From the IMG/VR virus record IMGVR_UViG_2671180727_000025: a stretch of DNA of 11,520 nt, one strand, 5' to 3'. Both the position numbers and the translations under genes were made by a program. This document shows, in pieces, positions 1,726 through 8,496 of this stretch. Below the pieces are notes generated by a model. It did no database searches and was not told the origin of the DNA. It worked only from the letters and a program-made list of their open reading frames with translations. Positions within the stretch are counted from its first letter, which is position 1. Each line of letters starts with the position of its first letter. The DNA is from a virus. Its lineage: Duplodnaviria; Heunggongvirae; Uroviricota; Caudoviricetes.

Positions 1726-2025
1726 ATGAAACTTAAATATTCTGGCTTAACTGCCAGTGGCAACACTCACCCTAAATTTACGCGCGGTGATATTTACCGC
1801 GACCAGTACGGCGGCACGGTAATGATTAAGGGCGTGGCGGGACGGTGCGTAACTTACCGCCGTGAAGGTTACGAATATGATTGCGTGATGCCTGTTTATC
1901 AGTTCCGGCGTGATTTTTCTCTGGTACAGACCGCGCCGCATAACGTGCCCACCAGCAACGCCAGGGCACGGGCAAACCTCCAGAAGCTGAAAACCATGAT
2001 TAACGGATTCAGGGGTAAAAAATGA
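1726..2025 (+). CDS. Hypothetical protein
   Basis: 99-aa ORF with ATG at 1726 and a GGAGAA Shine-Dalgarno (1712-1717). Its stop overlaps the start of the helicase gene (ATGA at 2022-2025). Confidence 0.5.
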   Translation: MKLKYSGLTASGNTHPKFTRGDIYRDQYGGTVMIKGVAGRCVTYRREGYEYDCVMPVYQFRRDFSLVQTAPHNVPTSNARARANLQKLKTMINGFRGKK

Positions 2026-3431
2026 AACTGGCACCGAACGTAAAACTATTACCGAAAGACAAATACACCGATGCGATTATTTTTGCGGGTATTGATGCTC
2101 ATTCATTCGCAGAGCATTACATCATTGCACAGGCCAAAAAAGCAGGCGATCCAGTCCCTCCCGTTTATCTGGGGCGTTATCAGTTAAGCGAACTGGATAA
2201 CCTCCAGATTGTTGATGATGGGCGATACAGGGCGACGGTGATACGCGCCGGAAATATTGAAGAGCCGCAGCTGTTAACCATCGCCACGAAACTGGCGATC
2301 GCCGGAGTCCAGGAGGCGCGGCTACTTTCTGAAAATTTCGAATTGCTGGAGGAATGGAGCGACCAGCTTCCACGGCTTAGGGAGGCATGGGAACGCGGGG
2401 AAAGCCTGGTCATGAAAAAAATCCCCCAGCGAAAAACCACGCTACCGATGAGCGTTGGATCTACCGGATACGACACACAGCTTGATTACGTGGTAAAGGG
2501 GATTATTCCGGCATCGTCGCTTTGCAGCATATACGGGGCGAGCGGTTCCTATAAATCATTCCTTGCCGGATCGTGGGCGTGTCACGTTTCCACGGGCCGC
2601 CAGTGGGGAGGCCGCAGGGTGGCGCATGGCGCTGTTCTCTATGTGGTTGGTGAAGGCGGTATCGGCGTTCCGCGTCGTGTAAAAGCCTGGGAGGTTGTGC
2701 ACGGTGAGCAGGTGAAAAATCTGTATCTGGTAAACCGTCCCATCTTTCCGGCTGTCCCGCTTGATGTTGATGAACTGGTTATTGCTGCCAGTCAGGTGGA
2801 GAGGGAAACGGGTAAACCTGTTCGCATGATTATTCTGGACACGCTGGCGCGCTGCTTTGGCGGCAATGATGAAAATGACTCCCGCGACATGGGGGCGTTT
2901 ATCCGTGGGTGTGACGAACTGAAACGACGCACAGGGGCCACGGTGCTGGTGGTTCACCATTCCGGCAAGGATGAGACGAAAGGCGCGCGCGGTTCCAGTG
3001 CATTTCGTGCTTCGCTGGATGCTGAATACCGGATACGCAGGGAGGACGCAGGAAGCGAAGCGCTGGTTATCTCATGCACCAAAATGAAGGACGCGGAGGA
3101 ACTCAAAGAGGCTGCCTATGATTTGCGGGTAGTGGAGCTTTTTACCGACGCTGACGGGGAGTTAATCACGTCGCTGGTGGTGGTGGATAAGCCGCGCCCT
3201 CCCGTTGAACTGGAGCGCATCGAAGAGGCAGGCAACAAGACGGAAAACCATACCGCGCTATGGGGGTGTATCCGTTCACGCACACAGAACGGCGACAAGT
3301 GCACGATCCCGCTGTTACGTGATGACATGAAAAAACTGGGGTACGAAATAAAGCACTTCCGGCGCTGGCTGGGCAAGCTGGAAAAAGACGGCGTTATCTA
3401 TGTTGACGGCGATGATGTAGGGCCACTGTAA
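2022..3431 (+). CDS. Replication initiator/helicase, RepA-like AAA_25 (RecA-fold) ATPase
   Basis: 469-aa ORF. Walker A-like IYGASGSYKS, Walker B-like VRMIILDTLARCFGG, and a downstream VLVVHHSGKD motif are typical of RepA/DnaB-like AAA_25 helicases of plasmids and PICI/satellite Rep proteins. No primase zinc-finger or TOPRIM motif recognised by eye. An iteron array begins 1 nt after the stop. Confidence 0.8.
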   Translation: MKLAPNVKLLPKDKYTDAIIFAGIDAHSFAEHYIIAQAKKAGDPVPPVYLGRYQLSELDNLQIVDDGRYRATVIRAGNIEEPQLLTIATKLAIAGVQEARLLSENFELLEEWSDQLPRLREAWERGESLVMKKIPQRKTTLPMSVGSTGYDTQLDYVVKGIIPASSLCSIYGASGSYKSFLAGSWACHVSTGRQWGGRRVAHGAVLYVVGEGGIGVPRRVKAWEVVHGEQVKNLYLVNRPIFPAVPLDVDELVIAASQVERETGKPVRMIILDTLARCFGGNDENDSRDMGAFIRGCDELKRRTGATVLVVHHSGKDETKGARGSSAFRASLDAEYRIRREDAGSEALVISCTKMKDAEELKEAAYDLRVVELFTDADGELITSLVVVDKPRPPVELERIEEAGNKTENHTALWGCIRSRTQNGDKCTIPLLRDDMKKLGYEIKHFRRWLGKLEKDGVIYVDGDDVGPL

Positions 3432-3634
3432 AAAGTGGGGGGCAAAAGTGGTGGGCATGGGGAATTTAACAAAATTTAAACACGACCCCCCACTTTTTGA
3501 CCTGTATACATCCCAAAAAGTGGGGAGCAAAAAAAATTCTTATGAAACAGTATGATAAAAATTACAAATCCCACGCCTTTAACGAGATGGGGAATTGTGA
3601 AAAGTGGGGAGTAAAAGTGGGTATAGGTGGGGAG
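3432..3634. repeat. Iteron array, putative origin of replication
   Basis: At least seven copies of (A)AAAGTGGGG(A/G): 3432-3442, 3444-3455, inverted 3486-3498 (CCCCCCACTTTTT), 3515-3527, 3599-3611, 3613-3622, and a degenerate 3623-3634. Two repeat clusters flank an AT-rich core (about 3528-3598). Position immediately downstream of the Rep helicase matches rep-ori organisation in PICI/SaPI-type elements. Confidence 0.6.
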
Positions 3635-3886
3635 ATGACACAAAAACGCAAAGACAGAACACAGCCAAAATATAAAGCGTTAGACATGACAGAGCACGCT
3701 TTAAAGGTGGCAATCAGAACGATAGACCGCCACGCGGGGGAAGGATACGCGAAGGAGCATCCCGAACTGATAAGCGCATTCATGACCACAGCGGCGGCAA
3801 ACTTTGCCACGCTGACAGAACGGGAGATTGCCGAAGCGGAACAGGTAACAACAATCAACGTTAAAACCGGAGAGGTGGAATCATGA
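3635..3886 (+). CDS. Hypothetical protein
   Basis: Internal ATG 3635 of track ORF 3497..3886, 83 aa. Chosen because the upstream in-frame portion merely translates the iteron repeats (KWGVKVGIGGE). A G-rich stretch (3626-3634) lies just upstream. Start is uncertain; alternatives are ATG 3587 and ATG 3542. Confidence 0.4.
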   Translation: MTQKRKDRTQPKYKALDMTEHALKVAIRTIDRHAGEGYAKEHPELISAFMTTAAANFATLTEREIAEAEQVTTINVKTGEVES

Positions 3887-4188
3887 GCGAACCAAAATTT
3901 GGTGAAAAATTTTACAAGCACAACGGACGGATCACGATTCTGCAAATAAGCGCAGCTACACCAGGCTGGTGGGTTGAAACAGACGAAGGATCCTCACCCG
4001 TGGCATCATGGGCGCTTTGTGTGCTTAGTTACCCTGACCGCGATGTGTATCAGGATATTCTGCCTGTGATATCCACAGACAAAGGCATGAAACCCGTAGA
4101 CATCAAAAGCATGGGTTTTCAGTGCGTAATGCTCACTGAAAAAATGATGGAAGAGATGAAAAAGAACAACGCCGGATCGCTTCACTGA
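3883..4188 (+). CDS. Hypothetical protein
   Basis: 101-aa ORF with ATG at 3883 overlapping the upstream stop (ATGA) and a GGAGAGGTGG Shine-Dalgarno at 3869-3878. Confidence 0.5.
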   Translation: MSEPKFGEKFYKHNGRITILQISAATPGWWVETDEGSSPVASWALCVLSYPDRDVYQDILPVISTDKGMKPVDIKSMGFQCVMLTEKMMEEMKKNNAGSLH

Positions 4189-4197
4189 GGTGGCAAT

Positions 4198-4608
4198 ATG
4201 ACAGCACAAATTGCAGCTTACGGGCGGCTGGTGGACGACCCGCTGGTAAAACAGAGCAGCAAGGGCACACCGATGACTCTGGCGCGTATGGCGGTATCGT
4301 TGCCATGCAGCCAGGCACATGACGGACAGGCGACGTTATGGTTATCGGTTATCGCATTTGGCAAACAGGCCGATTTCCTGGCTAAACATCAAAAAGGCGA
4401 TGTTGCCAGCGTATCCGGCACGATGCAGGTAAGCCAGTGGACCGGACAGAACGGGGAAACACGGCAGGGGTATCAGGTTATTGCGGACAGCGTAATCAGT
4501 GCCCGCGCGGCACGTCCTGGCGGGAACAGACGCAAAGCCACAGGCACACAGGGTAATCAGCCACCAGCGGGAGGTGATGACCCTTACGGTGATGATATTC
4601 CGTTCTGA
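4198..4608 (+). CDS. ssb: Single-stranded DNA-binding protein (short SSB with acidic C-terminal tip)
   Basis: 136-aa ORF. OB-fold-like N-terminal region, a Gly/Pro/Gln-rich linker, and a C-terminus DDPYGDDIPF that matches the conserved acidic SSB tail (DDDIPF). GAGGTGG Shine-Dalgarno at 4187-4193. Confidence 0.8.
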   Translation: MTAQIAAYGRLVDDPLVKQSSKGTPMTLARMAVSLPCSQAHDGQATLWLSVIAFGKQADFLAKHQKGDVASVSGTMQVSQWTGQNGETRQGYQVIADSVISARAARPGGNRRKATGTQGNQPPAGGDDPYGDDIPF

Positions 4609-4618
4609 GGGGGTGACG

Positions 4619-4891
4619 ATGGCACATGACCGCATAGCGGAGGAACTCGAGGCAAAAGGCTTTTACCGGAGGGCGGCGGCGCGATGGGGTGAAGTCATGC
4701 AACTGGTGGAGACAGACAAGGAACGGCATCAGGTTACGATGCGACGGCTGGAATGTTCCAGGAAGGCACAGAGGCCACCGGAGCCGCCGGATAACTTCGG
4801 AGACCTGAGAAAGGCAGTCGATCGCACTTATGCTGAAATGGGTATGGATGGTGTAAGCGATGAAATATGGCGTAATTACACAGACAGCTAA
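4619..4891 (+). CDS. PerC-family transcriptional regulator (tentative)
   Basis: 90-aa ORF from the internal ATG 4619 of track ORF 4499..4891, with a GAGGGGG Shine-Dalgarno (4607-4613). The N-terminal motif AEELEAKGFYRRAAARWGEVM resembles the conserved PerC/Pch N-terminus as I recall it. Followed by a strong terminator. Confidence 0.5.
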   Translation: MAHDRIAEELEAKGFYRRAAARWGEVMQLVETDKERHQVTMRRLECSRKAQRPPEPPDNFGDLRKAVDRTYAEMGMDGVSDEIWRNYTDS

Positions 4892-4896
4892 TCAAC

Positions 4897-4929
4897 AGCC
4901 GGAGCAATCCGGCTTTTTGTTATTTTTTG
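4897..4929 (+). terminator. Rho-independent terminator
   Basis: AGCCGGA (4897-4903), GCAA loop, TCCGGCT (4908-4914), followed by TTTTTGTTATTTTTTG. Sits 6 nt after the PerC-like stop. Confidence 0.8.
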
Positions 4930-5178
4930 TAAATTATTTGTTCGTGGTTGTTCCACGTTGTTCACTGAGCGGATCGGCATATTTTACCCGAACTGAATCA
5001 TGATTATTCTCGCCCGTGGTGCCAGGACGCTGGGGCCACTTTCCCGCCTGTTAATGTGCTCGCCAATATTCATTACCAGGCGGGAAAACGATCGGTGCGA
5101 TTACTGATTTCCTTATGAAAAACGGTTGAGTGTTTGCCGCGTCCTGGAGTTCCTTACTTAACCCCAGGACTTTTTTTT
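4930..5178 (+). promoter_or_regulatory. Leader/control region of the head-morphogenesis operon
   Basis: About 250 bp of non-coding DNA between a strong terminator and the capsid gene. Contains tandem GTTGTTC(C)AC repeats (4947-4965), a candidate sigma70-like promoter (TTGTTC 4958-4963, 16-nt spacer, TATTTT 4980-4985), a perfect 9-bp inverted repeat TCCCGCCTG (5042-5050) / CAGGCGGGA (5077-5085), and a hairpin GTCCTGG (5141-5147) / CCAGGAC (5164-5170) followed by T8 (5171-5178) abutting the capsid ATG. Confidence 0.4.
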
Positions 5179-6336
5179 ATGCAGAGAATAATCGAATTAC
5201 GCCAGCAGAAAACCGCCATTAAAAATCAGATGCGCGACATGCTGGAGAACGCGGAAAAAGAAAACCGCAGTCTTAACGATGCTGAGGGCGCAAAATTTGA
5301 CGAATTACGCGCTAAAGCTGAATCCCTCGATAAAGACATTTCCCGCCTTGAAGCCATTGCAGACGAAGAGCGCAGCAAGCCAGGTAAAAGCAGCCAGACC
5401 ACTGACCCCGCAGAACTACGCAGCTACATTCTGACAGGTGAAACCCGCGCATTAAGTACAGGCGTTCCCGCTGATGGTGGTTATACCGTTATCCCCGAAC
5501 TGAACACCGAAATCATGCGAATGCTGGCGGATGAATCCACCATGCGCCGCATCTGTACCGTGAAAAAAATCAGCAGCAACGAGTTTAAGCAGCTTGTTTC
5601 CGCTGGCGGTGCGACCGTTAACCACGGTGAAGAGGGTAAGGCACGCGAACAGACCAGCACCCCGCAGATTAACGAGGTGAGCATTAAGCTGTATCCGGTC
5701 TATGCGTACCCGCGCACCACACAGGAAATCGTGGATTTTTCCGATGTGGACATCCTTTCATGGCTGACGGGTGAGATTGGCGACACCTTCACGGAAACCG
5801 AAGAAAGCGATCTGGTTGTGGGCGACGGTGACAAAAAAGCAAAAGGTTTTTTATCCGTACCCCGTGCAGAGAAGAACGACAAAGAGCGTGATTTTGGTAC
5901 GTTGCAGGTAATTAAACCTTCCGAATCTCTGGCGTGGACATCTGCGGACCCGCTGATCGACCTGAAATTTGCATTACGTAAAAAATACCGCAAAAACGCG
6001 GTCTGGGTGGTTAACTCCACGACGGCGGCAAAACTCCAGAAGGTGAAGAACGCGAACGGTGATTACATCTGGCGTGACCGTTTACAGGCGGGTGATCCTG
6101 ATACGTTGCTGGGCCTTCCGGTCGAATATCTGGAGTTTATGCCTGATAACGTTATTGCCCTGGGTGACTTCAAACGCGGTTACTACATTGTTGATCACGA
6201 AACAGGTGTTCGCACCAGACCGGACAACCTCACAGAGCCGGGCTTCATCAAAATTTTCACGCAGAAATATTTAGGCGGTGGCGTGGTGGATTCGAACGCG
6301 ATCAAGATTCTGGAACTGCCACAGGACGACGATTAA
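5179..6336 (+). CDS. Major capsid protein, HK97 family, with N-terminal coiled-coil delta/scaffold domain
   Basis: 385 aa from ATG 5179; the track ORF starts at an upstream in-frame TTG 5134. N-terminal 90 aa are charged and coiled-coil-like (ELRQQKTAIKNQMRDMLENAEKE...). The C-terminal body has HK97-fold-like motifs (VVGDGDKKAKGFLS, YIWRDRLQAGDPDTLLGLPVEYLEFMP). No clear Shine-Dalgarno for either start. Confidence 0.88.
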   Translation: MQRIIELRQQKTAIKNQMRDMLENAEKENRSLNDAEGAKFDELRAKAESLDKDISRLEAIADEERSKPGKSSQTTDPAELRSYILTGETRALSTGVPADGGYTVIPELNTEIMRMLADESTMRRICTVKKISSNEFKQLVSAGGATVNHGEEGKAREQTSTPQINEVSIKLYPVYAYPRTTQEIVDFSDVDILSWLTGEIGDTFTETEESDLVVGDGDKKAKGFLSVPRAEKNDKERDFGTLQVIKPSESLAWTSADPLIDLKFALRKKYRKNAVWVVNSTTAAKLQKVKNANGDYIWRDRLQAGDPDTLLGLPVEYLEFMPDNVIALGDFKRGYYIVDHETGVRTRPDNLTEPGFIKIFTQKYLGGGVVDSNAIKILELPQDDD

Positions 6337-8161: not shown

Positions 8162-8496
8162 ACATAGGGCGACTGCGTGACAGGATAACGATTCAGACCC
8201 TGAAACAGACCAGAGCCATGACGGGCGAAATACTCGAAACGTGGGAGGACGGTCACACACTCTGGGCAAGCGTGAACATGATCAGCAGCAAGGAGGCCAT
8301 TTCATCGGGCGCAGAGCTGGCGATTGGTACCGTAAGGATCTGGATACGGTACCGGAAGGACATCAACGCCACCAGCCGGATAAAGGTCAGTACGGGGCCG
8401 CTGGCGGGGCGTGTACTGAATATCATCGGGCAGCCGTTGCCGGATGTCGCCAGGACACGCCTTGAAATTCTTTGTCGTGAGGGCGCGGAAAAATGA
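8158..8496 (+). CDS. Head closure / head-tail adaptor protein (SPP1 gp16-like)
   Basis: 112 aa from ATG 8158, which overlaps the portal stop (ATGA), with a GAGGGAG Shine-Dalgarno at 8141-8147. N-terminal MNIGRLRDRITIQ and the IRYRKDI core are characteristic of this family. The track ORF start 8116 lies inside the portal gene and is rejected. Confidence 0.7.
   Translation: MNIGRLRDRITIQTLKQTRAMTGEILETWEDGHTLWASVNMISSKEAISSGAELAIGTVRIWIRYRKDINATSRIKVSTGPLAGRVLNIIGQPLPDVARTRLEILCREGAEK

Follow-up and report, generated by a model that had tools for sequence, protein, structure and literature searches.

The open reading frame at positions 4619 to 4891 of the window, by which we mean the whole stretch of 11,520 nucleotides that was analysed, is a known kind of gene that is already annotated in RefSeq, and it is one more copy of a known passenger. 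Its product is a member of the PerC family of the PchE type (group 3 Pch). The reading that we favour, and regard as fairly probable, is that this perC is a PchE-type passenger which stands as the last gene of an ssb transcription unit and acts as a regulator of the host by way of protein partners.

The gene lies on the + strand and codes for 90 amino acids, from the ATG at 4619 to the TAA at 4889-4891. In front of it we read the Shine-Dalgarno sequence GAGGGGG (4607-4613, + strand), which is five nucleotides away from the ATG and overlaps the stop codon of ssb (4606-4608). Behind it there is an intrinsic terminator (4897-4919, + strand), made of the hairpin AGCCGGAGCAATCCGGCT at 4897-4914 and a T-run at 4915-4919, that would end the ssb-perC unit. 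The first-pass annotation had credited the gene with its own Shine-Dalgarno sequence and terminator, and both are indeed present. It had also placed the protein in the PerC family, and a profile search leaves no doubt about this: the match to Pfam PerC (PF06069) reaches 150 bits (E 2.3e-44, with a gathering score of 22.6) and runs end to end, with residues 1-90 on positions 1-90 of the 90 in the model. The match to phrog_994 is equally clear (E 1.3e-45). The PerC core D..AE.LE.KG[LF]YRRAA.RW is present, the length of 90 residues falls within the 85-105 or so that are seen in the family, and all the invariant columns (D4, A7, L10, G14, R17, R18, A19, A20, R22 and W23) are found in the window protein. 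On a stretch of E. coli S19-141 that is 100% identical, RefSeq gives the name "PerC family transcriptional regulator" (WP_000929753.1). Note that a longer frame from an in-frame GTG at 4499 (130 amino acids, overlapping ssb) was rejected in favour of the ATG at 4619, because PF06069 is covered at its full length from 4619.

None of 68 homologous perC genes, which represent 37 alleles, contains a premature stop, and the median dN/dS is 0.22. Thus, perC is a real, working gene under purifying selection. Its GC content is about 60%, while that of the window is about 52%.

Within the family, the window protein is closest to the copies that are carried by E. coli PICIs. Its amino-acid identity is 94% to the copy in the EcCIEDL933-type island (locus L003), 90% over all 90 residues to PchE of the O157:H7 island OI-51/Sp7 (L004:9001-9270) and 84% to the copy in EcCICFT073. 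To PerC of the EPEC plasmid pMAR2 it is 40%, and to a PchABC-type protein of 104 amino acids 42%. Furthermore, the window protein ends at the same ...WRNY.DS position as PchE, and the PchABC type runs 14 residues further. The perC-family gene of OI-51 is PchE (PMC3378721), and Pch group 3 has no other member (PMC6265319). That E. coli PICIs carry homologues of PerC was noted already in 2018 (PMC6092414); those described include, besides PchE on OI-51, the PerC-like genes of EcCICFT073, EcCIEDL933 and EcCIMP1.

The nearest named relative, PchE (ECs1588) of the classical PICI OI-51/Sp7, shares with the window gene not only the 90% identity, but also the position directly after ssb, the terminator and the kind of host element. 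On the other hand, the module downstream in the window is a full HK97-type capsid and packaging operon, whereas OI-51 has a classical capsid-redirection module; in the window the late leader follows perC without an intervening orfX; and the chromosomal site is rcnR/thiM for the window-type element and pepT/phoQ for OI-51. PerC of the EPEC pEAF plasmid (perABC) and PchA/B/C of EHEC lambdoid prophages belong to the same Pfam family, have the same conserved N-terminal core and are likewise small, helical and borne by mobile elements. Their contexts, that is, a plasmid perABC operon and a prophage moron after the lysis genes, are unlike that in the window, the window protein is without the C-terminal tail of the PchABC type, and activation of LEE1, their founding function, has been reported for EPEC PerC and PchA/B/C, but not for group 3. 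Lambdoid prophages carry other members of the family as morons that lie between the lysis genes and Nu1, and further ones are found on plasmids, either as perABC or adjoining hha.

The window itself is an EcCIEDL933-like capsid-forming PICI (cf-PICI). A RepA-type helicase gene at 2022-3431, identified from the window gene calls and profile matches, is followed by a region (3430..3634, + strand) with, at 3430-3621, three direct copies of the iteron AAAAAGTGGGGRGCAAAA, spaced by about 85 bp, plus inverted copies. This iteron region is probably the replication origin; among related PICIs the iteron sequence varies with the rep type. The single-strand DNA-binding protein gene ssb lies at 4198..4608 on the + strand (Pfam SSB, E 6.6e-16; RefSeq annotation), and the packaging module opens with the HK97-type major capsid gene at 5179..6336, also on the + strand (Pfam Phage_capsid, E 1.6e-61; RefSeq annotation), and goes on with genes for a protease, the portal, two connectors, HNH, TerS and TerL. 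The gene therefore sits next to the replication genes, as had been said of it from the sequence, and it separates them from the capsid module. In E. coli S19-141, a 98.6%-identical element of about 14 kb is located between rcnR and thiM. It begins with a tyrosine integrase gene and a small HTH (alpA-like) gene, ends with a small gene after terL and has no tail or lysis genes. An integrase, an alpA-type gene, rep, the genes from capsid to TerL, the lack of tail and lysis genes and a length of about 10-15 kb at a dedicated site are the features by which cf-PICIs are defined (bioRxiv 10.1101/2022.09.08.507074); all of this is seen in the S19-141 copy and the window genes agree with it. With this gene content and with the insertion at rcnR/thiM in a nearly identical strain, the earlier suggestion of a mobilisable satellite holds. 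Compared with the prototype cf-PICI, EcCIEDL933, the order of ssb, perC, leader and capsid operon is the same. The EcCIEDL933-type island carries between perC and the leader a 354-bp orfX cassette and a second copy of the terminator, neither of which is in the window, and the replicases differ (a DUF927 primase in the EcCIEDL933 type, a RepA helicase in the window), as do the iterons.

In another part of the window, positions 568-641 on the - strand, there is a weak Rfam match that resembles the SymR antitoxin (32 bits, where the gathering score is 61; E 0.0064). The match begins in an AT-rich block (401-600, 34.5% GC), where a gap separates a YlcI/YnfO-like gene from an Icd-like one, and with its final bases it reaches into the beginning of the Icd-like ORF (636-833). 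Either an antisense RNA lies here, or the match is due to chance.

For the transcription of perC, OI-51 is the best guide. There, RNA-seq and 5' RACE have placed the start of the pchE transcript 10 nt ahead of the small gene that comes first behind rep, and pchE is the last gene of a polycistronic hyp-ssb-pchE transcript (PMC7369912). Cells that are not induced contain this transcript at a basal level, and SOS induction lowers it about 2- to 7-fold (PMC7369912, PMC6265319). The layout in the window is the same, with one extra small gene. The first gene of the unit (3635..3886, + strand; 83 amino acids, phrog_1231) has ECs1586 as its counterpart in OI-51, and the second (3883..4188, + strand; 101 amino acids, phrog_27268) is optional, as it is found in only some of 80 related loci. 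Since the gap between ssb and perC is 10 nt and there is one terminator for the unit, we infer that perC is co-transcribed with ssb in the window, in the same polycistronic unit as in OI-51 (approximately 3625 to 4919). By the same comparison, the promoter of this hyp-hyp-ssb-perC transcript would lie within 3430..3634. A separate promoter for perC is probably lacking, and with a scan for consensus sigma-70 promoters we were not able to find one for perC or for its unit, the region 3430..3634 included.

The first-pass annotation had called perC cargo, and the distribution of the gene over related islands is in line with this. The 80 IMG/VR loci with close PerC alleles form a mosaic of modules, that is, an optional 101-residue hypothetical gene, SSB, PerC and an optional orfX, followed by either a cf capsid operon or a classical one. 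In E. coli W24 and ATCC 25922, ssb is followed by the same terminator and then by the same classical leader and operon, and PerC is absent across the locus. Among genomes with the W24-type ssb, PerC was missing from two of the 24 in an evenly spaced sample; the ATCC 25922/Nissle-type class is likewise without it. An E. coli cf-PICI (L121) has primase, SSB, ProQ, orfX and the terminator, and then the leader element of the window (4925-4963) at 97% identity, and no PerC. A scan of genome contigs with the capsid protein as query returned 12 loci, five of them relevant, and cf-PICIs of Rosenbergiella, Citrobacter, Erwinia and Gilliamella lack PerC as well. Because these PerC-less PICIs and cf-PICIs keep their leaders and operons, perC is dispensable, and the late leaders do not depend on PerC in cis. 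These observations support the view that perC is a frequent but dispensable passenger cassette in a variable slot between the replication and packaging modules, both in classical and in capsid-forming PICIs. It has been described that variable regions flank the cf-PICI packaging module on both sides (bioRxiv 10.1101/2025.02.11.637232). What we add is that the perC slot is defined and variable, that a recurring terminator bounds it, and that neither type of late operon needs PerC in cis.

This terminator, with the hairpin GCCGGAGnAATCCGGC and a T-run, recurs at the joints between modules of E. coli PICIs: after ssb where PerC is absent, after perC where it is present, once more behind orfX, and in classical islands also some 2.3 kb further on. 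Copies are found at 4897-4919 in the window, at about 7276 and 7630 in L003, in L004, at about 7420 in L017 and at about 7440 in L018. It may act as a recombination joint for the shuffling of cassettes.

Several further observations concern the same slot. In the cf-PICI of Shigella flexneri SFBU1023 (L005), whose capsid protein is 99% identical to that of the window, an in-frame deletion joins the first 25 codons of ssb to about the last 28 codons of perC (8173-8334), a further sign that perC is dispensable. The orfX family (74-100 amino acids), which is absent from the window, immediately precedes the capsid operon in cf-PICIs of several genera and is more widely kept there than PerC; its copies lie at 7398-7622 in L003, 9400-9624 in L004, 8398-8700 in L005, 3663-3926 in L006, 8013-8273 in L007, 8494-8769 in L009, 5330-5578 in L115 and 5712-5960 in L121. 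For the L003 copy of orfX we were not able to find any Pfam, NCBIfam or PADLOC match. In PADLOC, neither PerC nor the small genes beside it matched a defence family, so that we see no support for a function of the variable slot in defence. We also considered that perC and the capsid module had been inherited jointly from HK97-like phages. This was dropped, since a tblastn search of 50,697 phage genomes returned only two weak relatives of PerC, one of them in an IS-rich stretch of a P1-like phage.

Between the terminator and the capsid gene lies the leader of the capsid and packaging operon (4920..5178, + strand). It starts with the conserved element TTTTGTAAATTATTTGTTCGTGGTTGTTCCACGTTGTTCAC (4925-4966), which is common to PerC-less cf-PICIs, and ends with a terminator-like hairpin (5141-5170) and a run of eight T (5171-5178) that abuts the ATG of the capsid gene. 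The leader is strongly structured (RNA fold z-score -5.5); no Rfam family matches it and a scan found no consensus sigma-70 promoter on its + strand. From these sequence features it looks like a regulated leader of the antitermination type. A motif at its start, TTTTGTAAATTAT, is shared with the cf-PICIs of Rosenbergiella, Citrobacter and Erwinia. As a repeated operator this motif was rejected, as it occurs a single time in the whole element.

We next consider the protein itself. The AlphaFold model of the window protein is a TPR-like helical bundle without a DNA-binding fold, where the TPR-like match extends over only about 50 aligned residues; a profile search of the PDB sequences found nothing. 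The NCBIfam model of the ANR family (NF033650, 54 positions) aligns with residues 6-52 of PerC, and it matches 47 of 64 members of the PerC family at E <= 0.01, with a best E of 5.6e-8. For the window protein the match has 18 bits (E 0.0019), which is below the curated cut-off of 32 bits. The PerC family is thus related to ANR, and the window protein is not an ANR member. Like PerC, the ANR proteins (e.g. Aar) are small and helical, and both families have been linked to H-NS (PMC5570504; PMC4764244). They differ in that PerC proteins have about 40 extra residues at the C-terminus, and in that ANR proteins have been described as repressors of AraC-type activators. Aar, the archetype of ANR, binds H-NS as well as AraC-type activators (PMC5570504), and PchA-C activate LEE1 by displacing complexes of H-NS, StpA, Hha and YdgT and so relieving silencing (PMC4764244).

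Given the absence of a DNA-binding fold, the relationship to ANR and the precedents of PchA-C and Aar, we infer that PerC acts through protein partners. The unit that holds it, with a small gene, an optional small gene, ssb and perC, would start by the replication origin of the satellite and end at the conserved terminator, as it does in OI-51. Its TPR-like, ANR-related product would most likely bind other regulators or nucleoid proteins, for example complexes of the H-NS/StpA/Hha type. While the island sits in the chromosome, this would shift the transcription of the host, with silenced or activator-dependent host promoters as the presumed targets. Overexpression of PchE lowers csgD and curli and raises flagellar expression (PMC6265319, PMC7369912), where the phenotypes come mostly from overexpression on plasmids. 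Because of these effects, the rewiring of host gene expression that the first-pass annotation had envisaged is plausible for the window PerC as well, and by analogy with PchE one would expect genes for adhesion and motility to respond (csgD/curli down, flagella up), but not the LEE. A further point that we add is the prediction that PerC is a TPR-like, ANR-related factor which binds proteins, and not an activator which binds DNA.

Two more specific roles had been proposed from the sequence alone, and neither stands up well. One is that PerC is the late-gene activator of the satellite; in the form considered here, it would be an activator or antiterminator that acts on the capsid and packaging operon through the leader at 4920-5178. 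The gene is immediately 5' of the late operon in cf as well as in classical PICIs, and a leader that has no sigma-70 consensus on the + strand, folds with a z-score of -5.5 and carries a hairpin and T8 at the capsid ATG makes a dedicated activator or antiterminator plausible. However, PerC and the leader with its operon do not strictly occur together: leaders and operons are found without PerC in L017, L018, L121 and L006-L009, that is, the same classical leader and operon in W24 and ATCC 25922, and the cf leader element in E. coli L121 and, partly, in four other genera. Two unrelated leaders, which have no motif but the terminator in common, follow PerC alleles that are nearly identical (92% at the nucleotide level), and an Enterobacter satellite has almost no element genes after PerC. 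Moreover, the 90%-identical PchE is on at a basal level in uninduced cells and goes down on SOS induction (PMC7369912, PMC6265319), and the modelled protein has no fold for binding DNA. Silencing of the island's own late genes by H-NS was judged unlikely too, since the element is not AT-rich (about 52% GC, with perC at about 60%) and its genes would be poor H-NS targets. We therefore regard such a late activator as improbable; PerC is probably not the switch for the head genes of the satellite, and AlpA, a helper factor or read-through control would be a more likely regulator of the leader. The other proposal, namely that PerC activates the LEE virulence genes through ler, like EPEC PerC and PchA-C, is very improbable in our view. 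The protein is a true family member with the N-terminal KGFYRRAAxRW core conserved, and it is in the same length class as EPEC PerC, which is a LEE1 activator. Yet it is only 40-42% identical to EPEC PerC and PchABC-type proteins, and the expression of ler and espA reportedly does not require Pch of groups 2 and 3 (PMC6265319). According to a passage of PMC11773190 that cites Porter 2005, neither the PerC-like gene of EcCIEDL933 nor that of EcCICFT073 affects LEE1-lacZ, and another PerC-like protein of a PICI represses LEE1 (PMC11773190). By analogy with these relatives, activation of the LEE by the window PerC is unlikely.

A different question is whether the gene does something for the satellite itself. 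Homologues of PerC with 40-55% identity come directly after primase-SSB, or after a gene with a ProQ/FinO domain, in satellites of Salmonella, Enterobacter, Klebsiella and Pluralibacter, and PerC after primase-SSB/ProQ is seen in a second lineage of E. coli cf-PICIs as well. Furthermore, perC is present in every sampled E. coli genome that pairs the capsid type of the window with its ssb (353 genomes, at least 80% coverage). This primase-SSB-PerC linkage is tighter than expected for a random passenger, and it hints at a function tied to the satellite. PerC could then serve the relationship between satellite and helper, as a protein-binding modulator that tunes regulators of the helper phage or the host for the maintenance or induction of the satellite, with H-NS-type silencing of foreign DNA or a repressor or activator of the helper as example targets. 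The synteny at 40-55% identity in satellites of at least five genera speaks for this, as do the transcription of perC together with ssb from the origin region in OI-51 (PMC7369912), the predicted fold that resembles protein-interaction domains, the relationship of the family to ANR, and the retention of perC in all sampled E. coli cf-PICIs with the window ssb type. On the other hand, the presence of perC is polymorphic among PICIs that are otherwise syntenic, the GC content of the element (about 52%) and of perC (about 60%) makes its own genes poor H-NS targets, family members are also morons in lambdoid prophages and on plasmids, and we found no published life-cycle phenotype. As a whole we hold this explanation to be unlikely, if worth keeping in mind, and we give a role of PerC in satellite maintenance or helper interplay a clearly minor chance. 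A broader version is that the PerC family is primarily a satellite gene, a protein-binding regulator that is inherited with the primase-SSB module and acts on nucleoid-protein, helper or host regulators on behalf of the satellite, in which case PerC and PchA-C would have been co-opted only later for activating the LEE; this we consider doubtful. If it were true, the relation between PerC and ANR would link two families of virulence regulators to a common origin in mobile elements. Likewise, if the primase-SSB-PerC linkage does reflect a role in the satellite, these regulators need a different interpretation, and satellites, such as that in the window, which moves in its own capsid with borrowed tails, could spread modulators of adhesion and motility. 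For the window gene we keep to the reading of a PchE-type passenger that regulates the host.

In the course of this comparison we made two additional observations. The gene with a ProQ/FinO domain (RNA chaperone) replaces or follows ssb ahead of the PerC slot in Salmonella, in Pluralibacter and in one lineage of E. coli, at positions 5520-6008 in L024-L026, 4535-5017 in L119 and L120 and 5191-5721 in L121. Finally, elements of Klebsiella, Salmonella and Pluralibacter (L021, L030-L032, L024-L026 and L119-L120) have primase, SSB and PerC, followed by a superinfection-immunity-like gene and a tape-measure-like protein of 900-1000 amino acids, with no capsid genes in view. These may be a different type of satellite, and one copy of this element type has been deposited as a 22.9-kb circular "plasmid".
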